From an uncultured marine group III euryarchaeote (GTDB taxonomy: Archaea; Thermoplasmatota; Poseidoniia; MGIII; CG-Epi1): a DNA stretch of 56,817 nucleotides. The notes under the pieces were generated by a model. The model saw nothing but the letters and a program-made list of their open reading frames with translations. It did no database searches and was not told the DNA's origin. The DNA is taken from contig CACAGG010000002.1 of NCBI GenBank assembly GCA_902531985.1, positions 1-56,817 on the forward strand, written 5' to 3'. The position numbers were made by a program, and so were the translations under genes. This document shows, piece by piece, positions 31,201 to 56,764 of this stretch (position 1 is the stretch's first letter; each line of letters starts with the position of its first letter).

Positions 31201-31598
31201 TCAGAGTTTCTTACTTTGATAGCTTTCACGGCAGTATCTAGCATAGGATAGACAGGTGCTTGCCACTCAATAAGTTTTAAATCAGAAATTTTAGTCAAAT
31301 CATATATTTTCTCATGAGCTACATTATCGATACGTATAGCATTAATGTACTTGTAAATGTGATCTATTTCAAGGCCTATATTTTGTATTTGAGCAATGTG
31401 TTCTGTATTAGGCTCATACTCAAATATAAGTATAACACTTACATCTGCGCCATTACTCAGCAGATGATTCATTCTATCATCTATACCGTCTGCGTTTTGG
31501 TCAAAAAAACTCTTTTCGAATAGGACTTCTTCTGATACAGCTGCGTTAGGTATTAACGCGCTTAAAATTAAAATCAATGCTACAAGTGCCCCTCTCAT
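28269..31598 (-). CDS. Secreted/membrane-anchored subtilisin-like serine protease (S8) with a propeptide, multiple CARDB-like repeats, a PKD-like domain, a TM anchor and a cytoplasmic zinc-ribbon tail
   Basis: It has a signal peptide and the catalytic triad contexts VAVLDTGVD, HGTHVAST and GTSMATPIVAG. Repeated beta-sandwich modules end in E..D.NN/N.NN motifs. The C-terminal TM helix (AAVVLGLLGVVGL) is followed by RYFR and CPNC-x17-CPMC. Confidence 0.9.
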   Translation of the reverse strand: MRGALVALILILSALIPNAAVSEEVLFEKSFFDQNADGIDDRMNHLLSNGADVSVILIFEYEPNTEHIAQIQNIGLEIDHIYKYINAIRIDNVAHEKIYDLTKISDLKLIEWQAPVYPMLDTAVKAIKVRNSDEYSPVVWDKGLYGEGINVAVLDTGVDNEHETFGVYEDQGVRRFIAGMNCDGGCPTDDQGNYEFTTEEDSNEDPDDFDGHGTHVASTVLGTGGDDDEDGDGEPDYVGVAPGARLIDMKVMADWGSGSSADINEAIEACIENVNTDWEDDGEKNNGIQIMSMSLGTTSDSDGTDSQSQLVNQANAAGIAVIIAMGNDGDEEVPSPAAADWSIAVGAMDNSEDVTRNNDDLASYSNYGPRQSDGDDDRWDELKPSVVAPGSNIRAAAGHANLFGSSNAQGWSTLSGTSMATPIVAGLAALLLEADGSLAPTSNSNGVRDRLQDYSEAWNGEHDGSASEPDESDKYNYYYGYGYIDGYEIVDINQPDAIITSISITPNEPVEGDTVTITVDIENQGTMDIDDSSIRIIANDEELETESLGTIDVDSDITWTYDWMPNEGDYDIEVTVYDVEPSENDLDNNIAIEQVSVSEAPAEGVDLAIIDVWTDDSDPTHNEYISIYAKIKNQGTEMATDFELRWYDDNDKFATLEGTEIEAENEVTITGEWNAIEGESELLARLVSIEPEDQNSNNDERTFTIDVSPPPDEPDFSPANINFEGSLEEGQEITINFEILNLGKTSGAIDYELMIDGETVDNGNEQISSESSKSLSYAWNAIKGTHTVKVKLDNSDPVETTEDNNEVTKDIEIEEPKENFEFKSISWNDPLYQGEETTITVTLENSGGKDGNTIVSTYADGNMIHQESIEISSGQENYIVFTWTPYEIGSIELSAEIEDSTETISKYAYVQEPEEENIVPVALATISVNGILRSNSLVNIVNIGDQITFDGMNSYDSDGNIVSFRWNIDSSGVTLPFNNAQQQFDYIFEIATSYTITLTVTDNLGGINTWQGSVIVEENLLTNNGESEDGSNLLLYGSGAAVVLGLLGVVGLRYFRNEEEDDWGNWEEAAPESVNLQCPNCSGLITITTDQRPIQVGCPMCQAQFVIRE

Positions 31599-35714: not shown

Positions 35715-38576
35715 ATGGACGCGAATTACAGGAGTAAATTGTTAGCAAGTGCAGTGACTGCATTATTATTGATGTCTGGTTTAGTTTTACTAACTGGAGC
35801 ACAAGCAGGACCTGCAGACGATCTAGAAATTAGTGATGTGGTAGAGACGTTAGGTAGCCCACCACCTAGGGCAAATATTCCTTATGATTTAGATGTCACC
35901 TGGGAGAATGAAGGAAGTACAGATTATGATGCAACTGTAAGGTTGTATGATGATTGTGATATGTCTTCTGTCGAAGCTGAGTCAGAAACTATAAGCATGG
36001 GTGCCGGAGAATCTGGAACGGTTTCTCTTCAATACACATTTAGTGAAGTTGGAGAAGTATGCTATTCGGCAGCAATCTACTACAGCTCTACAAACTATGG
36101 CGAATTTGAAGTATACATGAATGTCGAACCTGAAACAGGAGATGCAGATCTTTGGGTTCAACTAGACATGGAAGGTAGTAACTTCGCAGCTGGTGAGCCA
36201 GCAGATGTAATCTTCCAATATGGAAACGAGGGAGACGTTAGCTCACTAAATCCAGTGACTTTAATGGCTTATTTCGATCCTATAGATAGCGACCCTACTA
36301 ATTATTTCGATCCTTCACCATTTGTATTTGATTATCTAAGTCCGCCTCCAGCAGATGCACCACCCGAAGCTGAAAGGATGGAATGGCAATATACTATTCC
36401 AGAAGATACTGAAGATGGTAAGTATAAATTTACCGTAATTATTGATTCCGAAGAAGAAAATGTAGAGGAAGATCCTAATTTAGATAACAATATAGAAGTA
36501 TTAGAGGTTTGTATTGGAGACTGCAGTGAACCAGATTTACAAATTTGGGAAGGGGCTGGTTTTGACTCTTTGAGAGCTCAACCTGAAGAACCGGTAGCAG
36601 GAACTACAGTTTCTTTCTTTTATTCATTAGAAAACATTGGAGAAGGCGATGCAACGCCTCCAGGTCCGTTTGATGATGAAGACGGTGAATTTGTGATGTA
36701 TCTTGAAATAAGGAAGTGTCCTGATGAAGACTGTGAAGGTCAACCTTGGGTTAAAGTTAATCAAACAGAGCAAGTTAGAACTGCTATTGGGGCAGGAGAA
36801 GTTCTAAGTGATGATATGGGTTTAAGACTCAATTGGAGTACGAGTCCTGAGGATTCAGGTTTTTGGAATGTTAGAGTTATAGCAGATGGCGAGAATGTTA
36901 TCGAAGAATCTAACGAAAATAATAATGATCTTGACTGGTATAAAGTACACAGCGCTTATTTAGAATTAAAAGAGCAGAGACCTGATTTGATTGTCACTGC
37001 TATAGATGAAGGAGAAGACAAGGTCTATCAAGGTGATCCAGTCATTATAACTGTAGCCGTTTCACAAACCGGTTTGGGAGATGCTATGGCAGATGATGCT
37101 GAAGTACAAATTAAGGTTAAAGATCCTGATTTGAATGTTATAGATTGGTTTACCATTGATGAACCTTTAACAGTAGGTATAGCTCCAGAAACAACCTTTT
37201 TTGAATATAATTGGACTCCAACTAAATTGGGTGTCTACGAGTTTTATGCTTATGTAGACAGACAAGACACTATCCTTGAATGGGAAGATGACAATAATGA
37301 GTATCCTAATGATAAATATATTGAAGTATTTGAAAAATTACCAGATCTTCAAGTTGTTAGCATGTCTATGTCTCCAGTCAATGAAGAAGGATATGCAATG
37401 GTGGGCGTGAGTTCAGAGATAACTGCAACTATTGCTAATCTTGGAGTAAGAGATATGACTTCCAGTGAAGGTACAAAATTAGAGGTTACATTCTATACTT
37501 CAGCACCATTTGTATCTGAATTAGGTACTATTAATGTTGACAAAGCTTTACTGATAGGGGAAACAGTTGATATTACAATTCCGTTTACCTTTTCAGGTAA
37601 TGATCAGTATCGCATTGTTGCAAAAGTTGATGAGTCTAAACTAATTTCAGAATCGAATGAAAATAATAATGAAAATTACAAGAACATATATGCAGTAAGT
37701 TCAATAGACGCATATGTCGAAAACATGAGCGTTTTTATTGGGGACAATCTTGCAGGTAAAGATCATCCAATAACCTTTGATTTGGGTATGGCAAACCTTC
37801 CCGATGAAGGCACTTATAGGCTCTTTTTCAACGTTTCAGTAGATGGTACTTTTGGTTGGGGAGATGTCCTTTCTTTATCTACACAAAATATGACCGGTTA
37901 CTATCCAATAGGAACTGGTTATAGTGTATCCCAAGATTATGGTCTTGGTTACATTGACTTTAATTCAAGTTACAATCATCAAACAGTAGTTATACCTTGG
38001 ATTCCTAACAAGGACAGAACAGATACTTACAATGTTTCAGTAGAGGTAAGTAGTGTAATTAATGTTGATGAAACTAATGATTTAGCCTATGCAGGTATTA
38101 CAATTGAAAAATTAACAACTAATTTAGTCGTCGATGCTATCAAAGTTACCGAGGCAGATGGTTCAGCTACTATCAAAGTTACAGTAGGTTATCCTCAAGG
38201 TGAACAATCACAGTTAGATGCTGAAGTTTCTTTAATGGTGTACCGAGCTGTAGACTATGAAGAAGGAAATCCGCCTATAGATCAACTAACTACTAAAACA
38301 ATTACAGGTATTTTGAAAGGAGACTCTCGTCCGGTTTCATTTACTTGGGCAGTTAAAAATGGAGATTATATCTTTGTAGCAGTTCTAGACCCAGATGATA
38401 AAGTCAAGGAAGTTAATGAGGATGATAATGCATATCCTTCCTTGAAAACTACATTTGGAACATCAGGACCTGCAGTTACTGAAGAAGAAGAAGATGAAGG
38501 ACTTCTTCCAGCTCCATCAGTTATAGCCGCATTAGGAATAATTGGCGTAGTCGCACTGTCACGTAGAAGAATTTAA
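35715..38576 (+). CDS. Large acidic cell-surface protein made of CARDB-like repeats, with a signal peptide and a C-terminal TM/sorting signal
   Basis: It has an N-terminal signal sequence and at least 7 repeats, each ending in E/D-x-NE-x-NN-type motifs (DPNLDNNIEV, ESNENNNDLDW, EWEDDNNEY, SESNENNNENY, NEDDNAY). The C-terminus is LPAPSVIAALGIIGVVALSRRRI. Confidence 0.8.
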   Translation: MDANYRSKLLASAVTALLLMSGLVLLTGAQAGPADDLEISDVVETLGSPPPRANIPYDLDVTWENEGSTDYDATVRLYDDCDMSSVEAESETISMGAGESGTVSLQYTFSEVGEVCYSAAIYYSSTNYGEFEVYMNVEPETGDADLWVQLDMEGSNFAAGEPADVIFQYGNEGDVSSLNPVTLMAYFDPIDSDPTNYFDPSPFVFDYLSPPPADAPPEAERMEWQYTIPEDTEDGKYKFTVIIDSEEENVEEDPNLDNNIEVLEVCIGDCSEPDLQIWEGAGFDSLRAQPEEPVAGTTVSFFYSLENIGEGDATPPGPFDDEDGEFVMYLEIRKCPDEDCEGQPWVKVNQTEQVRTAIGAGEVLSDDMGLRLNWSTSPEDSGFWNVRVIADGENVIEESNENNNDLDWYKVHSAYLELKEQRPDLIVTAIDEGEDKVYQGDPVIITVAVSQTGLGDAMADDAEVQIKVKDPDLNVIDWFTIDEPLTVGIAPETTFFEYNWTPTKLGVYEFYAYVDRQDTILEWEDDNNEYPNDKYIEVFEKLPDLQVVSMSMSPVNEEGYAMVGVSSEITATIANLGVRDMTSSEGTKLEVTFYTSAPFVSELGTINVDKALLIGETVDITIPFTFSGNDQYRIVAKVDESKLISESNENNNENYKNIYAVSSIDAYVENMSVFIGDNLAGKDHPITFDLGMANLPDEGTYRLFFNVSVDGTFGWGDVLSLSTQNMTGYYPIGTGYSVSQDYGLGYIDFNSSYNHQTVVIPWIPNKDRTDTYNVSVEVSSVINVDETNDLAYAGITIEKLTTNLVVDAIKVTEADGSATIKVTVGYPQGEQSQLDAEVSLMVYRAVDYEEGNPPIDQLTTKTITGILKGDSRPVSFTWAVKNGDYIFVAVLDPDDKVKEVNEDDNAYPSLKTTFGTSGPAVTEEEEDEGLLPAPSVIAALGIIGVVALSRRRI

Positions 38577-39400: not shown

Positions 39401-40132
39401 ATGACTCAGCCAATACCTCTTATCGTAGATAGAAGAGGCTCAGTTTTGAATTTAGCACTGAACAATCCAGAAAGAAAAAATGCACTAAATTCAGAGATGA
39501 TGGGAGCCTTGATTGCTGCAATAGAGGAATCTAAGAATTATGATGAATTAAGAGTTATAATTATTCAAGGTAAAGGCGATGCATTTTGCTCAGGAGCTGA
39601 TGTTAATAGTTGGAAACCTAGCGAATTACAAGAACTATTGAAAGCGATATCACTGTGTCCAATACCTACCGTTGCAGACGTTCATGGAGTTTGTTTGGGA
39701 GGAGGAATGGGTCTAATTTCAGCTTGTGATTTTATAGTAGCTAAACAAGAGACAACCTTCGGTTTTCCTGAAATTCAAATAGGCCTGATTCCTGCAGTCA
39801 TCTTTCCTTACGTTTCTTCTAAACTTCACCATTCAAAAATTAGGGAATTATTTATTACAGGGGAAAGGTTTGGAAATAAAAGGGCAATAGAGTTGGGATT
39901 ATTATATCATAATGAGGATATTCAATCTTTAATTTCATTAATTAAAAAAGGTGCCCCATCTGCTCAAAAGCATGTTAAGGCGTTGCTCAATAGTAATGTT
40001 TTATCAAAATCAATAGAAGAGAGAGATTTAGAGTTAGCTAATTTAATATCAAAGATTAAGGAAGATGAAGAGTGCAAGGAAGGAATAAATTCATTTTTAG
40101 AAAAACGTAATCCAAATTGGGTAGAAGAATGA
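39401..40132 (+). CDS. Enoyl-CoA hydratase family protein, probably methylglutaconyl-CoA hydratase
   Basis: Crotonase motifs are present (FCSGADV; GGGMGLISACDF; FGFPEIQIGLIP). The substrate assignment is inferred from its position directly upstream of the methylcrotonyl-CoA-carboxylase-like genes. Confidence 0.8.
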   Translation: MTQPIPLIVDRRGSVLNLALNNPERKNALNSEMMGALIAAIEESKNYDELRVIIIQGKGDAFCSGADVNSWKPSELQELLKAISLCPIPTVADVHGVCLGGGMGLISACDFIVAKQETTFGFPEIQIGLIPAVIFPYVSSKLHHSKIRELFITGERFGNKRAIELGLLYHNEDIQSLISLIKKGAPSAQKHVKALLNSNVLSKSIEERDLELANLISKIKEDEECKEGINSFLEKRNPNWVEE

Positions 40133-41598
40133 TTAAGAAAATACTTATAGCAAATAGGGGGGAGATTGCATGCAGAATAATAAGGGCATGTAATGAAATG
40201 TCAATTAAAGCAGTTGCAGTTTATTCAGATGTAGACGTTGATTCTCCACACGTCCTAATGGCCGATCAAGCTGTAAACATAGGATCTGCCAATCCTTCAG
40301 AAAGTTATTTAAATTTTGATAAAATAATAAACGCAGCTAAGGAGACTGGGGCCGACGCAATACATCCAGGATATGGTTTTTTGTCAGAGAATGGAGCTTT
40401 TGCACAGTATGTTAAAGAATCCGATTTGATATTCATAGGGCCAGAAGCAGATACAATAAAATCAATGGGAGATAAGGCAGAATCTAAACAAATGATGTTT
40501 GAAGCCGGAGTTCCAACAATTCCAGGAAGTGACGGCGAGTTAGTAGGAAATATTGATTCTATAGCAAGAGACATAGGCTATCCTTTGATGGTCAAAGCTG
40601 CAGCAGGTGGTGGAGGCAAGGGCATGCGAGTAGTGAGGAATGAGGGTGAATTAGATTCCTCCATAGAGGCTGCTAAGAATGAAGCTAGAAACTCATTTGG
40701 TAATGATACCTTAATACTTGAAAAATTCCTAGACAATCCCCGTCATATAGAGGTTCAAATTCTTGGAGATAAGAATGGAAATATAGTACATCTTTATGAA
40801 AGGGAGTGTTCCATTCAACGAAGACATCAAAAAATTATAGAGGAATCTCCTTCACCTGCTATAACAAATAAATTTAGAAAAAAAATGGGAGAGGCAGCAG
40901 TCAAAGCAGCCAAAGCTGCGAATTACAGCAATGCAGGTACTGTAGAATTTCTTTATCAAGAGGGTGAATTTTATTTTTTAGAAATGAATACTCGGTTACA
41001 AGTTGAGCATGGAGTAACTGAGATGGTTTGTGGCATAGATATTGTAAAGTGGCAAATACGAGTGGCTCAGGGGGAAAGTTTAACATTTTCACAAAAGGAC
41101 ATTAAGCAAAGAGGCCATTCTATAGAATGTAGAATATATGCTGAAGATCCTTCGCGGGGCTTCCTTCCAACACCTGGCTTTATTAGAAAAATGATTTTAC
41201 CAGAGGGTCCAGGAGTTCGTAATGATGTAGGCGTTTCTGAAGCTCAAGAAATAACCAGTTCTTACGATCCACTTTTAGCGAAATTAGTGGTTTGGGATTC
41301 AGATAGGGGCTCAGCCATTCAACGTATGGATTTGGCACTTTCTAATTTTGTAATTCTAGGGTTGATTACTAATCAACCTTTCTTAAGAGATATAATGAAA
41401 AATGAATCTTTCCAGAAAGCTTCTTTTTCTACTAATTTCATCGATGAAAATTTTAAGGATTGGGACTTTCCAGCTCTTGATCCTCAGGTGCTTGCTTTAG
41501 CATTACTTAGTTCAAAAGCATCTCAAGCCCAGATATCTTCTTCTGCAGAATCTTATTCTCCTTGGAGCAATAATAGAGGTTGGAGACAGGGAGTTTGA
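40129..41598 (+). CDS. Biotin carboxylase subunit of an acyl-CoA carboxylase (stand-alone, no fused BCCP)
   Basis: Contains MIKKILIANRGEIA, GYGFLSEN, KAAAGGGGKGMR, the ATP-grasp segment EMNTRLQVEH, and ECRIYAEDP. I prefer the ATG at 40129 (ATGA overlap with the hydratase stop) over the TTG at 40117. Confidence 0.92.
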   Translation: MIKKILIANRGEIACRIIRACNEMSIKAVAVYSDVDVDSPHVLMADQAVNIGSANPSESYLNFDKIINAAKETGADAIHPGYGFLSENGAFAQYVKESDLIFIGPEADTIKSMGDKAESKQMMFEAGVPTIPGSDGELVGNIDSIARDIGYPLMVKAAAGGGGKGMRVVRNEGELDSSIEAAKNEARNSFGNDTLILEKFLDNPRHIEVQILGDKNGNIVHLYERECSIQRRHQKIIEESPSPAITNKFRKKMGEAAVKAAKAANYSNAGTVEFLYQEGEFYFLEMNTRLQVEHGVTEMVCGIDIVKWQIRVAQGESLTFSQKDIKQRGHSIECRIYAEDPSRGFLPTPGFIRKMILPEGPGVRNDVGVSEAQEITSSYDPLLAKLVVWDSDRGSAIQRMDLALSNFVILGLITNQPFLRDIMKNESFQKASFSTNFIDENFKDWDFPALDPQVLALALLSSKASQAQISSSAESYSPWSNNRGWRQGV

Positions 41599-41600
41599 TT

Positions 41601-42092
41601 ATGGATAAAATCACTTTAGGATCAAATAGTTATATGTCAAAACTAAGACGTTCAGGCTCAGAATTTACTTTGAGTGTAAATGGTGAAACTTTCGCAGGAA
41701 CTTATTCTAAGAAGAGTAATGGGGCTATTGAAGTATCAATGAATGATACGAATTCAATTGGTTTTTCCGAAAAGAATGGTAATGAAATTTATGTTTTTTT
41801 GAATGGTGTAAATTATGTTCTTAAGAGAGAATCAGGTGTTTTGAAGGACAATGCATTTGAGGAGGAAAGCAGAGATACAGTTTTGAGTCCAATTACAGGT
41901 AAATTATTGGATAAAAAAGTAGAAAGCGGAGATTTGGTGAGTAAAGGCGACGTAGTAGTAATTTTAGAAGCTATGAAAATGGAGCATAGATTAAAGGCAC
42001 CTAGAGACGGGAAGCTTTCAAAACTTACATTGGCACAAATTGGAGATCAAATAAAAGAAGGTGAATTGATGTTTGAGTTGGAGGAAGAATGA
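41601..42092 (+). CDS. Biotin carboxyl carrier protein (separate polypeptide)
   Basis: The C-terminal biotinyl domain carries the EAMKMEH biotinylation motif. I prefer the ATG at 41601, preceded by GGAGACAGGGAG, over the alternative start at 41580. Confidence 0.85.
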
Positions 42093-43696
42093 GCATAATA
42101 CAAAGTAAACATAATTCTAATTCAGAGGAGGCTACAAAGAATAGGGCCTTTAATCAAAAGATTTTAGAGGAATTAAGACAAAAAATAAAGGAACACAGCA
42201 AAGGCGGACGTCCTGAAATGGTAAAACGCCATAAGGGAAGGGGCAAATTACTAGCAAGAGAAAGAATAGAGGAATTGATTGATTCAGATACGCCTTTCTT
42301 GGAATTGTCAACTTTGGCAGCTCATGGCTTGTATAATGATGAAGTACCCTCTGCAGGAATAGTAACGGGTATAGGTGTTATTCATGGCAGGGAAGTGATG
42401 ATTATTGCGAATGATGCTACCGTAAAAGGAGGAACTTATTACCCTTTAACAGTTAAGAAACATCTCAGAGCTCAGGAGATAGCCCAAGAGAATTGTTTAC
42501 CCTGTATTTATCTTGTAGATTCAGGAGGAGCCTTCTTGCCAATGCAAGACGAAGTTTTTCCAGATAGAGATCACTTCGGAAGAATATTTTACAATCAATC
42601 TCAAATGTCAGCAAAAGGAATTGCCCAAATTGCAGTAGTTATGGGGTCGTGTACTGCAGGAGGAGCTTATGTTCCTGCAATGTCTGATGAAACTATTATA
42701 GTTAAGAAACAAGGCACTATTTTTCTTGGAGGCCCTCCTTTAGTTAAAGCTGCGACCGGCGAAGAGGTAAATTCCGAAGATTTAGGGGGGGCGGACGTCC
42801 ATACGCGAAAGAGTGGTGTAGCAGATCATTATGCAATAAATGATTCACACGCTATAGAAATTGCTCGAGATATTGTTTCCAATCTTAATCGCTTACCAAA
42901 ATCTAAATTGAATATCAAAGAGCCCGAAGATCCTATCTATAGCTCTGAAGATTTGTATGAGATTATACCTGAAGATTCAAGGCTACCATATGATGTCAAA
43001 GAGATTATTGCTCGCTTAGTTGATGGTTCTAAATTCCACGAATTCAAGTCAAATTATGGTAAAACTATAGTTTGTGGTTTCGCTAATATTATGGGTTATC
43101 CTATAGGTATTGTTGCAAATAATGGCGTGTTATTTTCAGAATCCTCTCTGAAAGCAACTCATTTCATTGAGATGTGTTGCCAGCGTAAAATACCTCTTGT
43201 TTTCTTGCAAAATATAGTTGGTTTTATGGTCGGTAAAGATTACGAATCAGGAGGCATAGCTAAAGATGGAGCAAAGATGGTAATGGCAGTTTCCAATGCT
43301 AAAGTTCCTAAATTTACAATAGTAATTGGAGGTTCATTCGGAGCTGGAAATTATGGCATGTGTGGAAGAGCATACCAACCACGTCAAATGTGGATGTGGC
43401 CTAATGCCAGAATTTCAGTTATGGGTGGAGAGCAGGCTGCAGACGTTTTAGCAACAATTAAGCAAGATCAGCTTAAGTCTAAAGGAAAGACTATGACAAA
43501 ATCAGATATCAAGAAATTGAGAGACCCTATATTGGAAAAGTATGAGGCTGAAGGTAATCCCTATTATTCAACAGCAAGATTATGGGATGATGGAATTATA
43601 GATCCCATGGATACGCGTATGATTCTTGCATTGGGGATTTCTACTTCATTGAATGGGCCCTTGGAAGACACAGATTTTGGTGTTTTCAGAATGTAA
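42089..43696 (+). CDS. Acyl-CoA carboxylase carboxyltransferase subunit, methylcrotonyl-CoA carboxylase beta-like
   Basis: The segment [39 protein letters not shown] is close to the MCCC2-type sequence as I remember it. At 535 aa the protein carries both CT half-domains. The start overlaps the BCCP stop (ATGA). Confidence 0.9.
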
Positions 43697-47085: not shown

Positions 47086-47670
47086 TTATCGCAGAGAAGC
47101 TATGTGATAAAGTATTGCTTTCTCCTTCTTGCTTTCTTTAGTATGAAAAGGCATACTTCTTTTTATCATGAAATCAAACTCATAAGCTGAGATTATCTTT
47201 CCAGAGTTTTGTTTAACAAACCTTTCGATAAATTCTCTAGTCTCTCCAAGATGAATGGTCCAAATATTTTCAGCAATTTCTAGAGATTTTTTTAAAAAGC
47301 TGCGATCAGAACCTGGCCTTTGAGATCCAAAGGGTGGATTCATTAAAACAGTTTCAAACGGTTCTTCAATATTCTCAATAGCTAAATTAACCCATCTGAT
47401 ATCTAAATCTTCTTTTGTAGAATATTCTTTTGCAATATTTAATGCATCTTTATCAATTTCATATCCTGTGACATTTGCTCCAGTAATTGCAGCACCAATA
47501 GCTAATCTTCCAGTACCACATCCCAAGTCGGCAACGCTTGCAGACAAATGTCCCAACGATTTGGCTTGTTTTATTATTTCGAAAACAACATCTACGGGAG
47601 TAGCGTATTGTTCAAGTTCAGGCTTAGGGTGACTAAAATCGGGAGAATTGAATAATATCTTTGAGTTCAT
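47086..47670 (-). CDS. METTL5-like SAM-dependent (rRNA m6A-type) methyltransferase
   Basis: Contains LEQYATP, ADLGCGTGRLAIGAAITGA, GYEIDKDAL, the NPPF catalytic motif (LMNPPFGS), and FLKKSLEIA...H...TREF. By eye it is colinear with METTL5. Confidence 0.8.
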   Translation of the reverse strand: MNSKILFNSPDFSHPKPELEQYATPVDVVFEIIKQAKSLGHLSASVADLGCGTGRLAIGAAITGANVTGYEIDKDALNIAKEYSTKEDLDIRWVNLAIENIEEPFETVLMNPPFGSQRPGSDRSFLKKSLEIAENIWTIHLGETREFIERFVKQNSGKIISAYEFDFMIKRSMPFHTKESKKEKAILYHIASLR

Positions 47671-49934
47671 ACATTTCTTACAAATTTATAATTATTCTCA
47701 AAAATTTCACCACTAGCATGTAATCCTTTGATTATTTGTTCTACTTTAGCCCTAGAATAGCCTTCTTCCTCCATAATATCACAAATTTCTTGCTCACCCA
47801 CGCCTTGTTTTCCTTGTTCATCGATTATTGACAATACACGTGCTCTTGGGTCTATGTCTTTCTTTCTTTGTTCAGCATCCATTCCAGAGAATGCATAATC
47901 TACATCACCACGGAGAGTTACGGAGAGGAATAGGTCCATCATTTCAATGGCATGATCTGCGTGTTTGACTTCTACAGTCTCTGAAAGATACATTTTGGCA
48001 TCAGCTTCAGATAATCGTATTATCGATTCAAGTTGTCTTGGTGTAATTGGCATTGTCTTATCTTGCTCATCAGTATTATGGTATCTATTTCGCAAACCGG
48101 TATAGTATACTTTTATTTTATATTGAGCTTCCGAAGTCATGACTGGCCTCAATTTTTTAGCATATGATATATACAATCTAAGTAATCTTTGATCTATAGG
48201 TCCTTCTAATGATCTAACAGCAAGCTGATCTTCATCAATAGCTTCACCAGGAATAAGTTCCTCACCAGCTCTGTGACTACTTAAAATCTTATCAGCTAAT
48301 AAATTATCCCTTTCAGGATCAGGATCGTCTGTAATTATAAAGAAAATATCAAATCTACTTAGTAATGAGATTGGCATGTTAACTTGAGGTGGAAGAGGCA
48401 TAGTCATGTCGAATCTACTTCTTTTTGGATTTGCTGCAGCAAGTACTGAACATTTTGATTTTAATTGGGCATTTATTCCTGCTTTAGCAATACTGATAGT
48501 TTGCTGTTCCATAGCTTCATGCATTGATGAACGATCTTCTTCAGACATTTTATCTATTTCATCAATACAAGCAATACCGCCAGAAGCTAATACCAAAGTT
48601 CCAGCTTCTAAACTCCATCTCCCTTCACCAAATTCATCTCTTACTGCGGCTGCAGTTAAACCGGCTGCAGAGGTAGATTTACCAGTAGCCATTACACCTC
48701 TTGGAGCTATTCTTGACGCCGAACGTAATAATTGAGATTTTGCTAAACCAGGATCACCCATCATCAGCATGTGAATATCTCCTCTTATTCTCGTACCGTC
48801 AGGAAGTTCCTTTGTTACACCTCCAAATTGTTGTAAAGCAACAGCCCTTTTTTCCCAGTTCATTCCAAAAATAGTCGGAGCAATAGAGTCTCTAATTCTT
48901 TCAGCTATATCTTCTTGAAGAGATAATTCTTTTATTTCTTTTAATTCGCTTGCAGTTGGTTCAACATTCTCTTCTTCTCCAATTTTCTCATCTATACTGT
49001 GTGCATACAGGTATATGTCAAATTCACTTTTTTGTCTTCGACCTTGAAATTGAGATTTTGGTTTAATTATACCAACAATTGCGACTCTATCTCCAGGCTG
49101 TATTTTATGGGCTAATGAACTTTCAAAATAAGCAGTTAATCTTTCAGGTTGAGCACCTGGTGGTAAGTCTTCAGGATATTCTTGTATTTCTACCTTTTGA
49201 GAGTCAATAAATTGAGATAAATTTTCTTTTAATTTAAACTCAGCACATTTGCATGTCTCAGCAGTACAACGGGTAGGTTCTCTCATGGTGAAGAAATCCT
49301 GGATATAGGAATTCTTATGATTTTCCCAATCACATTCGAAAATACCAATTTCCATTCTTGGTCTTACTGGAGTGGCTTTTCTTACTAATCCATTTAATCT
49401 AACAGTTCTGTAGAGGTGTTCTTTTCTTAAACCACTAATTTCTACATCATAAAGCTCGCCAGGTATTCCCATAGGGACTACATCTAGAGTTATCTTTGTT
49501 CGGTGTTCCTTTCTCACCCTTTTCTTTGTATCATCGTCAATGAATTCTTGTACTACTAGTTTGGCAGCTTCTAAGGCATCATCTAAGTTCCATCTTAAAT
49601 TACTTGATAATCTTGCATTAAAATCAGTCACAGATTCCCAAGTGATCCGTATTGCCCTATCTCCATCAGGATATTCTTTTGCTATTTTTAAAATCTCATC
49701 GCTGTAAGTAGGTATGTTATTTTCATCAATACCCCTTCCTTCACACTCGGGGCATGTTATAGTATCAGGATCGTCTGTAGTTCTCTCATATTCAATTCGT
49801 CCTAGACCTCCGCATTTTACACACTTAGGTGCAGAAAATTCCTTCCCATTTCTATCTACAGGTCGATTCCGTGAGTCCTGAAAGAAGGAGCGCCAAAGCT
49901 CCATAAGTTCATCTACTGCAATGTCATTTTCCAA
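47667..49934 (-). CDS. mcm: MCM replicative helicase with an extra DnaJ-type zinc knuckle in the N-terminal region
   Basis: Contains Walker A MMGDPGLAKSQLL, Walker B IACIDEIDKM, the arginine finger SRFD, IAKAGI, an N-terminal OB/zinc region and a C-terminal wHTH-like end. The start is TTG, and the ATG at M11 is an alternative. Confidence 0.93.
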   Translation of the reverse strand: MENDIAVDELMELWRSFFQDSRNRPVDRNGKEFSAPKCVKCGGLGRIEYERTTDDPDTITCPECEGRGIDENNIPTYSDEILKIAKEYPDGDRAIRITWESVTDFNARLSSNLRWNLDDALEAAKLVVQEFIDDDTKKRVRKEHRTKITLDVVPMGIPGELYDVEISGLRKEHLYRTVRLNGLVRKATPVRPRMEIGIFECDWENHKNSYIQDFFTMREPTRCTAETCKCAEFKLKENLSQFIDSQKVEIQEYPEDLPPGAQPERLTAYFESSLAHKIQPGDRVAIVGIIKPKSQFQGRRQKSEFDIYLYAHSIDEKIGEEENVEPTASELKEIKELSLQEDIAERIRDSIAPTIFGMNWEKRAVALQQFGGVTKELPDGTRIRGDIHMLMMGDPGLAKSQLLRSASRIAPRGVMATGKSTSAAGLTAAAVRDEFGEGRWSLEAGTLVLASGGIACIDEIDKMSEEDRSSMHEAMEQQTISIAKAGINAQLKSKCSVLAAANPKRSRFDMTMPLPPQVNMPISLLSRFDIFFIITDDPDPERDNLLADKILSSHRAGEELIPGEAIDEDQLAVRSLEGPIDQRLLRLYISYAKKLRPVMTSEAQYKIKVYYTGLRNRYHNTDEQDKTMPITPRQLESIIRLSEADAKMYLSETVEVKHADHAIEMMDLFLSVTLRGDVDYAFSGMDAEQRKKDIDPRARVLSIIDEQGKQGVGEQEICDIMEEEGYSRAKVEQIIKGLHASGEIFENNYKFVRNV

Positions 49935-49987: not shown

Positions 49988-50896
49988 TTATCCGCCAAAA
50001 AGACGTTTGAAAAAACTAGGTCTGTTTGCTTTAATTTCAGCTTCAAGATTTATTCTTGAATCTACAGCAGCCATAAAATTCGGATTAATTTCCAGCGCTT
50101 TATCAAAAGCAGCTAATGCCTTTTCTCTTTCTCCCATAGCCTTCCAGAGCACAGTACCTTTGTTTACCCAAGTGTCAACAACATAGGGATTCAAATCCAA
50201 TGCTTTTTCAAAAGCTTCTAAAGCTTCTTCAGGTTTGTCTAATGCATACAAAATATTACCTTTATTTCGGTGTAAGGTATCATCATTTTTATGGGATTTT
50301 AAAGCATGGTTACAAACTTTAAGTGCAGCCTTATTGTCATCTTTCTTTCTAAGAACCATAACTAAATCATTGTGGGCTTCTTTCATGTCTGATTTGAATT
50401 TAATAGCATTCTTCAGACACTTTTCGGCGTCATCGTATTTCTGGACAAGCATTTTGGCATATCCTTTGTTATACCAAGCTTCTGCATCTCTTGCATTGAG
50501 TCTGAGAATAGCATTCCAACATTTATCAGCTTTACCAAATTTCTTCAATTTTGTTAATAAAATTCCCAAAGATTTCCATCCATCTATGTCCTTTGGTTTA
50601 CTTTGAGTAGCCATGTGATAAGATCTAATTGCTTCTTCATAATCGCCTAACAATTCAGAAACTTCAGCCTTTCCTTTCAGTGCTTCAGCATGGTTTGGAC
50701 TTTTTTTTAACACAGTTTCAAAGGTGCTTCGTGCATTGTCAGGATCGCCTAATTCATATTGAACACGTCCAAAAGCTACTCTTGCAGGAATATCTCCTGA
50801 ATTATCTCTTAAGATACTGTCTAGTAAATTATAAGCACCATCAAGGTCTCCGTTATAGAGTAAATCATCTAATGTTTTTTGCCACTTTGCTGCCAT
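49988..50896 (-). CDS. TPR-repeat protein (about 8 TPRs)
   Basis: It has repeated 34-aa units with the W/Y..G.....Y..A...F..AL...P pattern (for example AEAWYNKGYAKMLVQKYDDAEKCLKNAIKFKSD). Only 2 nt lie between its start and the upstream V4R gene's stop. Confidence 0.85.
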   Translation of the reverse strand: MAAKWQKTLDDLLYNGDLDGAYNLLDSILRDNSGDIPARVAFGRVQYELGDPDNARSTFETVLKKSPNHAEALKGKAEVSELLGDYEEAIRSYHMATQSKPKDIDGWKSLGILLTKLKKFGKADKCWNAILRLNARDAEAWYNKGYAKMLVQKYDDAEKCLKNAIKFKSDMKEAHNDLVMVLRKKDDNKAALKVCNHALKSHKNDDTLHRNKGNILYALDKPEEALEAFEKALDLNPYVVDTWVNKGTVLWKAMGEREKALAAFDKALEINPNFMAAVDSRINLEAEIKANRPSFFKRLFGG

Positions 50897-50898
50897 GT

Positions 50899-51348
50899 TT
50901 ATTTCTTATCAAATTTGAAGAGTCTTGTTTCCTCTCCTACCAATTCTTCTACCACACTATAAGGTTGTTGTAAGAGCCCTTCAAGTACTCCGGAGAGACA
51001 TCCAGCAGTGAAATCACAATGATTCTCAGCTCCAATTATTCCAATCTCAAGTAAATTTTCTAGCTTAACAACTATGTGTTCCTTGTTTGAATCTAATACA
51101 AAAAGATGTCCTAATCCAGCTTCGGCCCATGCTTGGTTGAGTACCATATCTAAATCGTCAGTACCCATGCCAACATAGTTGACTGAAAGACTATTTCCTA
51201 CAGTGTGCCCACAGTTGAAAAGAATTCTTCTAGCTTTTTCAGAACCCACTCCTTGCAATTCAGTCCATAAAGTACCAAGAAAGGTACTAGGCAAAACTAG
51301 GATATCAGATGTTTGAACGCCAACGTCCGTATCGTAGAAGTCATCCAT
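50899..51348 (-). CDS. V4R (4-vinyl reductase / Bet3-like fold) domain protein
   Basis: Contains ARRILFNCGHTVGNSL...WAEAGLGHLFVLD...IVVKLENLLE...NHCDFTAGCLSGVLEGLL...VEE. This follows the V4R pattern (G..G......GlG.l.....v.v.ns.e.....C.f..G.l.G), but the distal Cys pair seen in many V4R proteins is absent. Confidence 0.55.
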   Translation of the reverse strand: MDDFYDTDVGVQTSDILVLPSTFLGTLWTELQGVGSEKARRILFNCGHTVGNSLSVNYVGMGTDDLDMVLNQAWAEAGLGHLFVLDSNKEHIVVKLENLLEIGIIGAENHCDFTAGCLSGVLEGLLQQPYSVVEELVGEETRLFKFDKK

Positions 51349-51362
51349 AGGGCTTAGCCCTT

Positions 51363-51902
51363 CTATGACATTCCCTCAACCATCTTCTCAGAAATATTCT
51401 GAAAAGCTTCACCTACATTTCGACCATCTTTTGCAGAGGTCATCATGAACTGTGCGTTGAGTTTCTTTGATACTTCAGACATTTCTTTTTCGCCAAATAA
51501 TGCTTTATCCATCAAATCACATTTATTAGCAAGCAATACTACAGGGATTTCTCCAGTTACCTGCATTAATGTCTTAATCCAATCGATAGTAGAAAGTAGA
51601 GTTTCTCTGCGAGTTATATCACAAACAATCATTGCGCCTTCTGAACCGCGGTAATAAGCTTGTTTGACATTTCCGAGTGTTTTTTGTCCAGCAACATCCC
51701 AAATCATGAGTGTTACATCAATATCTGGCTTTGCACCGCCAGATCTTAATTGGACCTCTTTCTTTACAATTTTAGCTCCAATTGTTGTTAAATATTTGTC
51801 ATCGAAAGCGTTTATAACGAAACGACGAATCAAACTAGTCTTTCCTACAGCAGGATCGCCGAGCACAACAATCTTCTTTGATACTTTCTTAGCAGCCATC
51901 AT
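51363..51902 (-). CDS. Ras-superfamily small GTPase (Rab/Ras-like)
   Basis: All G boxes are present: G1 GDPAVGKT, G2/switch I YLTTIG, G3 WDVAGQ, G4 NKCD and G5 TSAK. It is 179 aa with no C-terminal Cys lipidation motif. Confidence 0.88.
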   Translation of the reverse strand: MMAAKKVSKKIVVLGDPAVGKTSLIRRFVINAFDDKYLTTIGAKIVKKEVQLRSGGAKPDIDVTLMIWDVAGQKTLGNVKQAYYRGSEGAMIVCDITRRETLLSTIDWIKTLMQVTGEIPVVLLANKCDLMDKALFGEKEMSEVSKKLNAQFMMTSAKDGRNVGEAFQNISEKMVEGMS

Positions 51903-51960
51903 GGTTCTCTACCTCGAGGTTTAATCATTGTTGAGACTCTATTTAATATTAATCAATATT

Positions 51961-52755
51961 TTAGATAATTTTTTGCTTATTTTCGCAAATGTGGGTACTT
52001 CTTTGCCCTACAATGATTCTTGTTACTGGTTTTTTACAGTGTGGGCAAGGCTCACCAGTCTTCCGGAATATTTTCAATTGCTTCCAAAAATCTCCTTTTT
52101 TACCTTCAGGACCTCTAAAAGTTAGGAACGTTGTCCCTCCATAACTTATCGATTTTTTTATTATATATCTTATATCTCTATGTAGTTGTTTTTTTTCGAC
52201 CTTTGTTAAAGTATTGGCTTTTCGCATAGGATGTATTGACGATCTGAATAAAATTTCATCAGCTAAATAGTTTCCGATACCTGCTATAAATTGCTGATTC
52301 AATAGTAATGGTTTCATCATTCCAGTTCTTTTTTCTAGCATTTCTTCAAACTTGTTAGAAGTAAACTGCTTGCTTAGAGGTTCAATTCCAATATGTCCTA
52401 CAATTTTGTTGATATTTTTAACAATCCAAACGCGTCCAAATTTCCTATAATCTACAAGGCATAATTTTTGGCCATCAGTAAAATTAATCTCCACAGTAGT
52501 ATATTTTGGAGTCTCACCCTTTGTAATATCTATTCTCCCAGTCATTCTTAAATGGATTATGATATGGTGTGTGTTTAGATTGATTATTAGATATTTTCCT
52601 CTTCTGTCTAATCCAAATATTTTTTGCCCCTTCACAAGGTTAAAATTAGAATCAGATGCTCTATGCCAGAGAGCTTTCCCTCCGTTAGCTTCTAAACCAA
52701 TTAATGGTTTAGCTAATCCAGTTCGATAAGAGTCAACCTCAGGTAATTCAGGCAT
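51961..52755 (-). CDS. fpg: Formamidopyrimidine-DNA glycosylase / endonuclease VIII family (Fpg/Nei)
   Basis: It has the N-terminal catalytic MPELPEV, an H2TH segment (LLNQQFIAGIGNYLADEILFRSSIHP) and a C-terminal zinc-finger region (CPHC...HIC). Confidence 0.85.
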   Translation of the reverse strand: MPELPEVDSYRTGLAKPLIGLEANGGKALWHRASDSNFNLVKGQKIFGLDRRGKYLIINLNTHHIIIHLRMTGRIDITKGETPKYTTVEINFTDGQKLCLVDYRKFGRVWIVKNINKIVGHIGIEPLSKQFTSNKFEEMLEKRTGMMKPLLLNQQFIAGIGNYLADEILFRSSIHPMRKANTLTKVEKKQLHRDIRYIIKKSISYGGTTFLTFRGPEGKKGDFWKQLKIFRKTGEPCPHCKKPVTRIIVGQRSTHICENKQKII

Positions 52756-54223: not shown

Positions 54224-56764
54224 TTAATTTCCTAAATTATTTTTTCTACGGTAGTTGTATCCTACAATCAAAAGAACGGAGGCTACAGGCATTAGGAGAG
54301 TTCCAAACTCAGGTATAGATTCCCAATCACTTACAGCTTGATCATTGTCCCCTTCAGTTGATAATTGAATATAATCTGCACCGCCTGCATTAACTGCAGT
54401 ATTATGCGTCCAAATACCTGCACTTGGTAATAAATCACCGGAAGAGTTACAATCGCCATCATTGCCACTGCCATCATTCCAGCATACACCATCAATTACA
54501 AACATCTTATTGTCTTCATTGAAACCAGATTCAACTCCAGTTTCATCGTTTCCAGAATCACTATCTACCATGTAAACCATATCATCATTACCTAAAGTAA
54601 GCCCACTTGTACAAGTTGTCGTAGCTCCACTGTCTAGATTTCCAGATAAAGAACATCCAGTATCGTCGCTTACATCATCATAGATTTGAATTCCGTCTAA
54701 ATTTATTTGTGCAGAGTTAGAGTTGAAGATAGTTACAGTATTTGTATCTGGATCAACTTTACTAATCATTAGACCACCTGCAAAGGCTTCTTTTTCATAT
54801 GTATTCCATCTTACTTCATCAATTATCCCATTAAAGTTAGCAATAGAAGTAGATCCAGAAATATCTCCAGAACCGATATAATATTCTACATTACCAGCAC
54901 TAGGATAGTTTGTAGTATCTTTAATATTGAAATTAATCAAATCAGGATCACCACTGTTACTTATTCTGACATTGTTAATGAAAACACTAATTCCATTCTT
55001 TATACCGTTACCATCATTATCATTTGAGACTGCAATGTGGTACCAAGTGCCAGTATTGAACTGGGTCTGACTGTTGAAATATTTTTTGTTAACATCACTA
55101 TCGTCACACATGTCAAAACATAATTCCAGATATCCGTTTCTAATTCCTATCTGCAATTCGTCTTCACTTTCATCGATACTTCCTAGACCCTCACCATCTC
55201 CAATGAAAAGAATAGGCATACTTGTAGAACCATCTCCAATATCACTTGGATTAATCCAAGCTTCGAAAGACCAGTCGTTATTGTGGAACGAAGGCTGGTC
55301 TGCATTAGTAGCATAGTCGCCAGTTCCATCTAGAGTTAATCCATTACCCATTTTTCCAGAAGAACTAGTTGTTGGATCTCCGCCAGTTGTCAAAGTTCTA
55401 TCATTACCTCCAGAATCAAGTAAATCATCGTTGAATCTGTAGTAAAAGTAAGTGTCTGTTTGAGCAACAAATCTTCCACCATCATTTATGGTTGTAAAAG
55501 ATTTAGATGAATCTTCATCTCCATCCCATCCCACAATGTGAATCCAATAGTCACCTTTAACGATCTCTAATTCTATTTCACTGCCACTTGCTGCAGCATC
55601 AATTAATTCACCGGAAGTCCATTCCCAATCATTGTTGGTTTCTCCAGTCCATTCCTTCAAAACTCTTTTTGTTATAATTCCGTATTGACCTTTAATCTCG
55701 ACCATCATTTCAGCACCAATACCCATTCCTATTGACGAATATCCAGTAGTGTAATCATTATCGGTATCAATCATAACAAAAATGGTGTCTTCATTAGTTA
55801 ATACAGGTAAAGGTGTTGAAGCTTGATTTGAAGCTCCAGGTTCGCTATTTCCATTACTAGTTTGAGCTCCTGGAATTGATTTAGCACTGTAGGAAGGAAC
55901 AGATACTCCATTCAATATATTTCCACTAACACTTAGATACATGAACGCGTTACTGTTTTTTTCTACAGCTGCATAATTCTGAATATCAATGTGTTCAGAT
56001 TCAGCAGTAGAAATTATGTTGAATTGTTTTTCAACATTCATCCAGTCTCCAAAATAACCGTCAATAGTTATTTCTGAGCTTTCACTTTCAACGTTGTTGT
56101 TTGACATCTCCGCAATCATTTCAGATATTGCAAAATTATTGCCGTTTAGCAAGACGATAGTATCAGCTAAATCAAAGCTGTCTTTATTGTCTGTAGTTTG
56201 CCATACAACTTTAACTTCGCTTCCAGAAGTTAACCCTAGATCAAAGAGAGGTATTTGAGCTTCTATATTATTTCCAAGTGTGCGAGCATTAACTGAATTT
56301 AATAGATTAAAGCCATTCCAATCATTATTTTCTCTATTGTTGTTGAATGCATATAGTATTGAACTTAATACAACTTGTTCTTTACCATACATTTCAACCA
56401 TATAATCCGCACCAATGCCCGGTATTGAGTATCCGGTATCTGAATTGTCATCAGTGTCAATCATAACTCTTAGTGTGTATCCTTCTGATGAGTAGAACAT
56501 AGGTTCATCAGTAACTGTTAGAATTGATAAATAAATCGAATCTGCAAAAATCGAGGTGGACACAATGTCCATATTTGCGTTGTTTACATTTCCTTGTTGC
56601 TGTTCAGTAGATTCGATACCGTCCCAATCCCCTGAATCACCATCAACAGTTATCTGAGAGCTTTCATTCGTTTCCCAAAGCAATAGCAATGAAACTCCGG
56701 CAAATAAAAGGAGAAATGCTGAAATGGTTGCAGCCATTGCATTTCGGTTTGTAACTCGTACCAA
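54224..56764 (-). CDS. Large acidic surface protein with two N-terminal duplicated modules, a LamG/concanavalin-like domain, a lamin-tail-like (LTD) domain and a PEF-CTERM-like anchor
   Basis: It has a signal-like MAATISAFLLLFAGVSLLLLW and LamG_3-like segments (LTLDGTGDYA...WSFEAWINP...TWYHIAVS...ISVFINN). An LTD-like segment reads MISKVDPDTNTVTIFNSNSAQINLDGIQIYDD. The C-terminus is IPEFGTLLMPVASVLLIVGYNYRRKNN. The start is ambiguous (TTG at 56764 or ATG at 56737), and the frame stays open to the window edge. Confidence 0.75.
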   Translation of the reverse strand: MVRVTNRNAMAATISAFLLLFAGVSLLLLWETNESSQITVDGDSGDWDGIESTEQQQGNVNNANMDIVSTSIFADSIYLSILTVTDEPMFYSSEGYTLRVMIDTDDNSDTGYSIPGIGADYMVEMYGKEQVVLSSILYAFNNNRENNDWNGFNLLNSVNARTLGNNIEAQIPLFDLGLTSGSEVKVVWQTTDNKDSFDLADTIVLLNGNNFAISEMIAEMSNNNVESESSEITIDGYFGDWMNVEKQFNIISTAESEHIDIQNYAAVEKNSNAFMYLSVSGNILNGVSVPSYSAKSIPGAQTSNGNSEPGASNQASTPLPVLTNEDTIFVMIDTDNDYTTGYSSIGMGIGAEMMVEIKGQYGIITKRVLKEWTGETNNDWEWTSGELIDAAASGSEIELEIVKGDYWIHIVGWDGDEDSSKSFTTINDGGRFVAQTDTYFYYRFNDDLLDSGGNDRTLTTGGDPTTSSSGKMGNGLTLDGTGDYATNADQPSFHNNDWSFEAWINPSDIGDGSTSMPILFIGDGEGLGSIDESEDELQIGIRNGYLELCFDMCDDSDVNKKYFNSQTQFNTGTWYHIAVSNDNDGNGIKNGISVFINNVRISNSGDPDLINFNIKDTTNYPSAGNVEYYIGSGDISGSTSIANFNGIIDEVRWNTYEKEAFAGGLMISKVDPDTNTVTIFNSNSAQINLDGIQIYDDVSDDTGCSLSGNLDSGATTTCTSGLTLGNDDMVYMVDSDSGNDETGVESGFNEDNKMFVIDGVCWNDGSGNDGDCNSSGDLLPSAGIWTHNTAVNAGGADYIQLSTEGDNDQAVSDWESIPEFGTLLMPVASVLLIVGYNYRRKNNLGN

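Follow-up and report, generated by a model that had tools for sequence, protein, structure and literature searches.

What would a Rab-like GTPase, a protein of the V4R fold and a tetratricopeptide repeat (TPR) protein do together, if their genes are packed end to end in a marine archaeon? The question arises from three minus-strand genes, here called the triad, on contig CACAGG010000002.1 of a Marine Group III archaeon; the window that we analyzed is the whole stretch of 56,817 nucleotides (nt), and the hidden Markov model (HMM) scans for Roadblock and KaiC genes span all 56.8 kb of it. An earlier note on this sequence (the original prediction) had read the three genes as a possible self-contained module in a genome that looked euryarchaeal, not Asgard. 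The host indeed belongs to Candidatus Poseidoniia / Marine Group III in the phylum Thermoplasmatota, a non-Asgard lineage, and the idea of a self-contained module has found support in a triad that is independent of its genomic context, a GTPase-V4R pair that recurs in other lineages, congruent gene trees and TPR::GTPase fusions. To judge from these comparisons, the three proteins probably form one functional module; we put the probability at roughly three in four. The observations from which this reading starts are gene order, protein families, fold, conservation, co-inheritance, fusion proteins and the sequence match of a membrane motif. We also lean slightly towards a fuller model, in which the three would make up a membrane-associated small-GTPase switch module with a V4R partner and a TPR scaffold or effector that carries a membrane tail.

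The Three-Gene Unit

The genes and their upstream region are as follows.

51363..51902, minus strand: Rab-like small GTPase (gene 1), 179 amino acids, with complete G1-G5 boxes and catalytic Gln73
50899..51348, minus strand: V4R-fold protein (gene 2), 149 amino acids, assigned from AlphaFold2, Foldseek and a family profile
49988..50896, minus strand: TPR protein (gene 3), 302 amino acids, about 7-8 repeats (TPR_1 6.5e-38, TPR_2 5.5e-36)
51903..51960, minus strand: putative promoter and leader of the triad, with the TATA-like ATTAATATTAAATAG at about 51940-51954 and the Shine-Dalgarno-like GAGGT at 51911-51915

The listing of open reading frames (ORFs) and the sequence reproduce the layout first described, with three ORFs on the minus strand (51902-51363, 51348-50899 and 50896-49988) and gaps of 14 nt between the GTPase and V4R genes and 2 nt between the V4R and TPR genes. 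Upstream, 58 nt away, lies an Fpg/Nei glycosylase gene (52755-51961), and 53 nt downstream follows an MCM gene (49934-47667). In an alignment of the upstream regions of 12 loci, the TATA-like TGATTAATATTAAATAGAGT and the Shine-Dalgarno-like CTCGAGGT ahead of the GTPase gene are kept within the subclade, and sister clades carry TTAAATA or TTATATA at a similar distance. Genes 2 and 3 have no comparable space upstream. Because the gaps measure only 14 and 2 nt and the conserved TATA-like element is found solely upstream of the GTPase gene, this region is the probable promoter and leader of a single three-gene transcription unit.

Two other approaches to the locus were set aside. Scans for sigma-70 promoters and intrinsic terminators are unsuited to an archaeon, and their counts did not exceed the shuffled expectation. 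A role in anti-phage defense was discarded on the outcome of a search with the PADLOC models, in which the GTPase and the V4R protein had no matches and the TPR protein had generic TPR matches only.

Gene Neighborhoods and Co-Inheritance

Across 25 genome loci and about 50 metagenome loci the triad has the same gene order; in every complete Marine Group III locus, and likewise in the divergent loci L030-L032, the V4R gene is followed directly by the TPR gene. The V4R relatives that have diverged to 41-42% identity retain GTPase-V4R-TPR amid other flanking genes: L030 has a gene for an MscS-type channel upstream of the triad, and in both L031 and L032 a glycosyltransferase gene precedes it, with an unrelated 258-amino-acid ORF, and no MCM, downstream. 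At the level of the pair, the GTPase gene is found directly upstream in nine of nine sampled V4R positions (seven locus types), and the orthologous GTPases beside canonical V4Rs of other orders are 40-49% identical to the GTPase of the window. The synteny looked for in related genomes is thus present on two levels, with the full triad kept in divergent loci and the GTPase-V4R pair kept in all other sampled V4R lineages.

On these neighborhoods, the triad is best described as the Marine Group III form of a wider Thermoplasmatota cassette with a constant core, GTPase then V4R. The accessory genes change with the lineage: TPR in Marine Group III, Roadblock and KaiC-like ATPases in Methanomassiliicoccales, and iKaiC and HEAT in other Thermoplasmata. 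The sample from Methanomassiliicoccales comprises the complete genome CP070739.1 (L033) and four metagenomic loci (L034, L036, L037 and L038), and the order there is Roadblock/LC7, GTPase, V4R, a KaiC-like::MglA-like GTPase fusion, and two KaiC-like genes. In the six-gene cluster of L033 (5035-9215), the GTPase reads DIAGE at G3, with Glu for the catalytic Gln, and the 393-amino-acid KaiC-like::MglA-like fusion reads GTPGQ. The original prediction had noted that no Roadblock gene is present. This holds for the 56.8-kb window, where a custom HMM found no Roadblock/LC7 gene and the KaiC HMM no KaiC-like gene, but not for Methanomassiliicoccales, where Roadblock/LC7 directly precedes the orthologous pair.

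Thermoplasmata metagenome-assembled genomes (MAGs) and contigs from freshwater and sediment show yet another arrangement, GTPase, V4R::DUF835, GTPase, V4R. DUF835 has been classed as an inactivated KaiC domain (iKaiC; PMC5847659). Tandem duplicated pairs of this kind occur at L123/L124:4001-7459, L112:3995-6629, L106-L108 and L113. In the two NCBI Thermoplasmata loci among them (L123/L124), the duplicated pair is followed by a HEAT-repeat gene; by sequence, an alpha-solenoid partner recurs here in another repeat family (HEAT vs. TPR). Two further V4R lineages, represented by L125 and L126, have the same GTPase-V4R adjacency. Neighbor-joining trees of the GTPase and the V4R protein share their major clades. 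Both pairs of the duplicated locus are sister groups in the GTPase tree and in the V4R tree, which implies that the GTPase-V4R pair was duplicated en bloc.

A link between the TPR protein and the GTPase is suggested by fusion proteins. TPR::GTPase fusions of 335 amino acids, with a GTPase 52-55% identical to that of the window, occur in Thermoplasmatales and Thermoplasmatota MAGs, and by the Rosetta-stone argument they support a relationship between TPR and GTPase. Examples are L091:3518-4525, P0144, P0173 and P0231; at least four TPRs stand N-terminal to the GTPase, and a V4R gene is not adjacent.

Sequence Divergence and Selection

GTPase sequences from across Marine Group III share 82-99% identity, those of MCM 59-85%, and at the protein level the GTPase changes about 7-10 times more slowly than MCM. 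For example, an identity of 88% for the GTPase (51363-51902) goes with 61% for MCM, the replicative helicase (47667-49934), and one of 98% with 78-81%. For nonsynonymous (dN) and synonymous (dS) divergence, the window was compared with the same partner genomes for every gene.

GTPase: dN 0.015-0.021, dN/dS about 0.016
V4R: dN 0.03-0.15, dN/dS 0.02-0.07
TPR: dN 0.05-0.09, dN/dS 0.03-0.06
MCM: dN 0.14-0.17, dN/dS 0.06-0.09
Fpg: dN 0.15-0.23, dN/dS 0.08-0.11

The dN/dS ratios are rough, with dS near saturation, and the ranking of the genes by dN is clear; for the clade at 55% identity the synonymous sites are saturated and dN/dS is not estimable. Taken as estimates from sequence, these values indicate that the triad genes are real and all under strong purifying selection (dN/dS about 0.015-0.07, below MCM and Fpg).

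The GTPase

51837..51860, minus strand: G1 / P-loop GDPAVGKT, residues 15-22, from the translation
51684..51701, minus strand: G3 / switch II WDVAGQ, residues 68-73, from alignments, Asp retained

All the Ras-superfamily G boxes that had been read from gene 1 are at their expected positions, the remaining ones being T40 in YLTTIG, NKCD at 126-129 and TSAK at 155-158. The protein matches Pfam Ras at 4.6e-41 and NCBIfam small_GTP at 3.5e-23, and all motifs fall within a single domain of about 180 amino acids, as in the Ras superfamily. Across all GTPase lineages aligned, the core of the P-loop is invariant and the position of Pro17 is variable. Among PDB sequences the closest solved structure is a Thorarchaeota Rab (7ezb, 2e-33), followed by Rab23/21/22/6/5/7, and NCBI names members of this family 'Rab family GTPase [Thermoplasmatota archaeon]'. 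The protein also carries YYRGS and IVCDIT, where the Rab-family motifs read YYRGA and xVxDIT. The stretch LMIWDVAGQ resembles what we take to be the RabF2 motif, and the regions that presumably correspond to RabF1 and RabF3 differ.

The catalytic residue of G3 varies by lineage, being Gln in Marine Group III, Glu beside a Roadblock gene, and His or Arg elsewhere, which suggests that the lineage variants differ in the control of GTP hydrolysis.

By similarity the GTPase counts as Rab-like, but the defining prenylation motif of eukaryotic Rabs is missing here. No C-terminal Cys motif (CC, CxC or CAAX) is found in the GTPase of the window, which ends in ...EKMVEGMS, or in any ortholog. The N-terminus is basic (MMAAKKVSKK) and without Gly2. 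Because there is neither a C-terminal Cys nor Gly2, the GTPase appears to be without an obvious lipid anchor of its own.

The V4R-Fold Protein

The assignment of gene 2 to V4R in the original prediction stands at the level of fold, by Foldseek and by the family profile, but does not pass the direct Pfam threshold: the protein alone scores 16.5 bits against PF02830 (E 0.0094), below the cut-off of 31. V4R is the sole Pfam model reported for gene 2 at E <= 0.1, with no TRAPP/Bet3-family model, and a phmmer search against PDB sequences returned nothing at E <= 10. The protein does match the V4R part of NCBIfam MsvR (2.4e-6). Searched against 1.84 billion representative proteins, the family profile finds only 68 relatives and reaches, for instance, P0075 at E 1.8e-13. 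The more distant relatives are bona fide V4R proteins, some of them fused to DUF835, and eight of the ten relatives scanned exceed the Pfam V4R threshold with 32-58 bits.

The AlphaFold2 model (pLDDT 82, pTM 0.78) has three long N-terminal helices followed by two beta-hairpins, with a helix ahead of each. In Foldseek searches against the PDB it matches the following structures.

MopR, PoxR and DmpR V4R sensor domains: TMq 0.70-0.73, E about 4e-6, probability 1.00
Bet3-family TRAPP subunits (TRAPPC6, Bet3, Trs33, Trs31): TMq 0.64-0.69, E about 2e-4, probability 1.00
MJ1460 V4R protein: TMq 0.61, E about 2.5e-4, probability 1.00

Weaker matches include BcsD and H-NOX. On this model gene 2 has the V4R/Bet3 fold. 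The comparison with Bet3 and TRAPPC3 structures that was to decide on the fold thus yields TRAPP-family matches, with the sensor V4Rs nearer; as modeled, ordinary prokaryotic V4R domains are at least as close to the protein as Bet3 is.

Two derived features set the Marine Group III protein apart.

51286..51348, minus strand: acidic-aromatic N-terminal extension MDDFYDTDVGVQTSDILVLPS, with invariant positions, predicted disordered
50947..51018, minus strand: degenerate zinc site, with Cys111 and Glu134 kept and the other two Cys replaced (Val137) or deleted

The consensus of the extension, MDDFYDxDxGxQTxDILxLPS, is invariant, and residues 1-16 have a pLDDT below 50. The MDDFYD peptide is confined to the V4R clade that has a TPR neighbor and is missing from the canonical V4Rs without one; we regard it as a candidate short linear docking motif, a possible ligand for the TPR groove. 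Aligned with canonical V4Rs, two of the four ligands of the zinc site (C-x22-E-x2-C-x7-C) are lost across the whole MDDFYD clade. A Cys-based zinc site is present in Thor-TRAPPC3 and PoxR and lost in mouse TRAPPC3 (Tran et al. 2024, PMC10933270).

Solo GTPase paralogs (L096-L105, L109-L111 and L114-L118; e.g., L114:3860-4540) have a conserved N-terminal (I/V)D(D/E)F(I/V)(E/D)WFL(D/T)E, for instance DDFIEWFLDE. This acidic-aromatic extension recalls the MDDFYD stretch with which the Marine Group III V4R protein begins, and in some of these paralogs the catalytic Gln is replaced by Arg. In P0059-P0062, V4R parts are joined to unrelated sequence or domains (PF00145, PF00211, TPR) on single short contigs; these look like assembly or gene-calling chimeras, though P0061 may instead have arisen by reading through from V4R into TPR.

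The TPR Protein and Its C-Terminal Tail

49991..50020, minus strand: amphipathic C-terminal tail PSFFKRLFGG, a MinD-type membrane-targeting sequence by match

The count of about eight TPRs in gene 3 agrees with what we find, namely about 7-8 repeats, with five significant stretches for TPR_1 and matches to many further TPR models in Pfam. The protein ends in RPSFFKRLFGG. The membrane-targeting sequence of E. coli MinD is KGFLKRLFGG (PMC5471200), and FFKRLFGG is identical to FLKRLFGG of MinD in seven of eight positions. Orthologs down to 57% overall identity carry the tail as KGFLRRIFGG, KGFISRIFGG or PSIWKRIFGG. Among about 3,700 ORFs of the window and all collected loci, the motif occurs in 64, every one of them this TPR gene, and in none of the about 3,600 others. 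The helical hydrophobic moment is 0.51 for the TPR tail and 0.45 for MinD. We infer that the tail is a MinD-type membrane-targeting sequence. The likeness to MinD is confined to tail sequence and hydrophobic moment; there the motif sits on a ParA/MinD ATPase, here on a TPR scaffold, where it is known from sequence.

A Proposed Mechanism

If the three proteins act together, the Rab-like GTPase would serve as the nucleotide-dependent switch. The V4R protein would be its dedicated partner, most likely a dimeric regulator or sensor upstream of the GTPase, and may make the nucleotide state respond to a hydrophobic ligand or to a signal from a protein. It is probably dimeric, as described for PoxR, Thor-TRAPPC3 and Bet3 family members (PMC10933270). 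On this model, the structural zinc site of the V4R protein has disappeared in Marine Group III, and an acidic peptide for docking has been added at its N-terminus. The TPR protein may be the scaffold or effector, with its MinD-type C-terminal amphipathic helix keeping the complex at the cytoplasmic membrane, and the tail would then substitute for the membrane attachment missing on the GTPase, which has no prenylation or myristoylation site. Precedents exist for small GTPases that engage TPR proteins: p67phox has a TPR domain to which Rac-GTP binds, and SgmX, another TPR protein, is recruited by MglA in its GTP form. Physical interaction, direction of action, membrane binding and cellular output of the module are what we would infer from the comparisons, and each is put forward here as a proposal. 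In other lineages V4R is fused to DUF835/iKaiC and KaiC-like genes are neighbors of the pair, which for the wider cassette suggests a role in signal transduction, not in the tethering of vesicles.

Alternative Explanations

Several observations weigh against a functional module. CysRS, Fpg, the triad, MCM, the methyltransferase and Csl4 are all syntenic in most Marine Group III loci, and because the whole neighborhood is syntenic there, such loci cannot be counted as independent evidence. The fusion proteins have a TPR part only 30% identical to the TPR protein of the window, a generic repeat likeness, and we do not claim that the two are orthologous. An AlphaFold2 model of the TPR::GTPase fusion was uninformative and is not used, with a good TPR half, a GTPase half at pLDDT below 55 and a pTM of 0.52. 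Many GTPases of the same family occur solo, without an adjacent V4R or TPR gene (L096-L105, L109-L111 and L114-L122), so that the GTPase appears to have no strict need for an adjacent V4R. The call of a membrane-targeting sequence derives from a motif of 10 residues. One could assume that the three genes have no functional link at all, and that inherited synteny in a compact genome has merely left side by side a GTPase with a housekeeping role, a protein that binds hydrocarbons and a TPR chaperone of the generic kind. Besides the shared synteny of the neighborhood, short gaps are common in this streamlined genome, and the MCM, methyltransferase and Csl4 genes also overlap or abut. However, the adjacency of the triad outlasts a change of both flanks, the GTPase-V4R pair is found in distant orders with other accessory genes, en bloc duplication and congruent gene trees tie the pair together, and TPR::GTPase fusions exist. 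We disfavor this explanation and consider it very improbable.

The arrangement in Methanomassiliicoccales invites another explanation, namely that the triad is the remnant of a KaiC-type system in which a KaiC-like ATPase was the ancestral hub, the V4R protein the small-molecule sensor and the GTPase the relay, with the KaiC-like and Roadblock partners now encoded elsewhere in the genome and the TPR protein a later, lineage-specific addition. KaiC-like genes follow the pair in that order, one of which also carries an MglA-like GTPase domain; V4R::DUF835 fusions join the inactivated KaiC domain (PMC5847659) to V4R; and the canonical V4Rs of MopR, PoxR and DmpR bind phenolic ligands. However, the 56.8-kb window has neither a KaiC nor a Roadblock gene, the Marine Group III V4R lacks half its zinc site and evolves, like the TPR protein, under strong constraint, and the TPR::GTPase fusions separately back the TPR link. 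This origin is possible, but we find it doubtful.

The original prediction went further than a module and saw in the triad a prokaryotic counterpart of the Rab-TRAPP relationship. In its strict form, the V4R protein would be a Bet3-like subunit of a guanine nucleotide exchange factor (GEF) for the Rab-like GTPase, and the operon a prokaryotic homolog or forerunner of TRAPP-Rab1. The V4R model does match Bet3, TRAPPC6, Trs33 and Trs31 with probability 1.00 and TMq 0.64-0.69, the nearest solved relatives of the GTPase are Rabs, the zinc-binding cysteines are lost as in mouse TRAPPC3, and in Methanomassiliicoccales the pair adjoins a Roadblock gene, whose fold is related to the longin subunits of the TRAPP catalytic core. 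We regard this part of the prediction as a legitimate but tentative lead, and membership of the V4R protein in TRAPP is not supported by what we find. The likeness is at the level of fold only, the bacterial ligand-sensing V4Rs being structurally nearer than Bet3 (E 4e-6 vs. 2e-4), and Pfam gives gene 2 as V4R without any TRAPP/Bet3-family model. TRAPP catalysis is carried out mainly by the longin subunits Trs23 and Bet5, which have no counterpart here: no longin gene of the TRAPP type (Bet5/Trs23) is found in the operon or the window, and Roadblock is likewise missing from the window. The Roadblock protein of Methanomassiliicoccales may instead serve the KaiC-fused MglA-like domain with its GTPGQ at G3, and the fusion of V4R relatives to iKaiC signaling domains speaks for signal transduction, not vesicle tethering. 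We therefore regard a TRAPP homolog or forerunner as unlikely. It is also improbable that a Rab-like GTPase and a V4R protein form an ancient archaeal regulator-switch pair predating Asgard, in which a V4R dimer would control the nucleotide state (as a GEF or in the manner of a GDP dissociation inhibitor), together with Roadblock in Methanomassiliicoccales, and the MinD-like TPR tail would recruit it to the membrane in place of prenylation. If this were the case, the cassette would be a living prokaryotic arrangement of Bet3, longin/Roadblock and Rab, the source of TRAPP.

Comparison with Known Systems

The main known case of a small Ras-like GTPase with a dedicated partner in prokaryotes is MglA/MglB, in which MglB is a GTPase-activating protein of the Roadblock/LC7 type. 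The likeness to that system is that a small single-domain GTPase is encoded beside a dedicated partner, that a TPR protein is the likely effector or scaffold (SgmX in the case of MglA), and that a Roadblock gene stands directly ahead of the orthologous GTPase in Methanomassiliicoccales. The GTPase of the window is nevertheless not of the MglA family. MglA lacks the G3 Asp, whereas the window GTPase retains it (WDVAGQ) and groups with Rab/Ras-type sequences; the partner is Roadblock there, whereas here V4R is the conserved partner and the window has no Roadblock gene. The GTPase domain of the KaiC fusion in L033 is of the MglA type, with GTPGQ at G3. The survey of these families (Wuichet & Sogaard-Andersen 2015, PMC4316618) reports V4R for no MglA or Rup group and uses neither the word V4R nor the word TPR.

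The eukaryotic TRAPP core, a GEF for Rab1/Ypt1 made of Bet3/TRAPPC3-family and longin subunits, and the Asgard TRAPPC3-like proteins resemble the triad in linking a Rab-like GTPase with a protein of the V4R/Bet3 fold. In Asgard MK-D1, small GTPase genes are reported to be generally located outside operons with Roadblock, longin or TRAPPC3 (PMC10933270), whereas here GTPase and V4R form a conserved operon. The V4R sensors (XylR/DmpR/MopR/PoxR), MJ1460 and the C-terminal domain of MsvR have the same helix and beta-hairpin topology as gene 2, and Cys111 and Glu134 align with their zinc ligands. Unlike the sensors, the protein of the window is a stand-alone one of 149 amino acids, without an AAA+ or DNA-binding output domain; two of the four zinc ligands are missing, the N-terminus is extended by an acidic peptide of invariant sequence, and the gene always follows that of the GTPase. 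In Rac/p67phox, as may be the case here, a TPR domain reads the GTP state of a Ras-superfamily GTPase, and the TPR::GTPase fusions favor a direct relationship of TPR and GTPase in this family; there is no sequence relationship past the generic TPR repeat.

The proposal that V4R is the ancestor of Bet3 was made from structure alone and does not mention GTPases (Podar et al. 2008, PMC2253512). Single Rab-like sequences from a Thermoplasmatales archaeon and Aciduliprofundum were listed, without gene context, under the question 'Are there Rab GTPases in Archaea?' (PMC4915359). In the literature that we searched on V4R with GTPase, Roadblock or KaiC, and on Thermoplasmatota Rab, the pairing is not described, though an earlier account of the Methanomassiliicoccales-type cluster is possible. 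By its sequences, the triad would represent a prokaryotic module built on a small GTPase whose class of partner had not been reported before, and a GTPase-V4R operon conserved over Thermoplasmatota would be the first evidence from genomes for cooperation between V4R-fold proteins and Rab-like GTPases in a prokaryote. The proposed link between V4R/TRAPP and Rab becomes testable in a prokaryote, and the triad proteins, small and likely soluble, are tractable for biochemistry. A module of this kind would give three 'hypothetical' genes a role, and these rank among the best conserved of an abundant and uncultured marine archaeal group; a TPR partner with a MinD-type helix suggests a possible membrane route for a GTPase without a lipid anchor.

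Other Features of the Window

The gene upstream of the triad (51961-52755, minus strand) encodes a bacterial-type Fpg/Nei (H2TH) DNA glycosylase, which adjoins the triad in most Marine Group III loci, though not in L030 or L031. At 54224-56764 on the minus strand lies a gene for an 846-amino-acid surface-type protein with a C-terminal IPEFGTLLMPVASVLLIVGYNYRRKNN that has the appearance of a PEF-CTERM-like archaeal sorting signal; NCBIfam gave no sorting-domain match, and this candidate is unconfirmed. Three large CARDB-bearing genes (28269-31598, 31638-34184 and 35715-38576) encode a subtilase (S8), a peptidase of the clostripain family (C11) and one further protein. All three CARDB-domain proteins have the look of secreted or surface proteins, which fits a protein-degrading marine heterotroph. 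An acyl-CoA carboxylase cluster at 40117-43696 on the plus strand consists of biotin carboxylase and carboxyltransferase genes.

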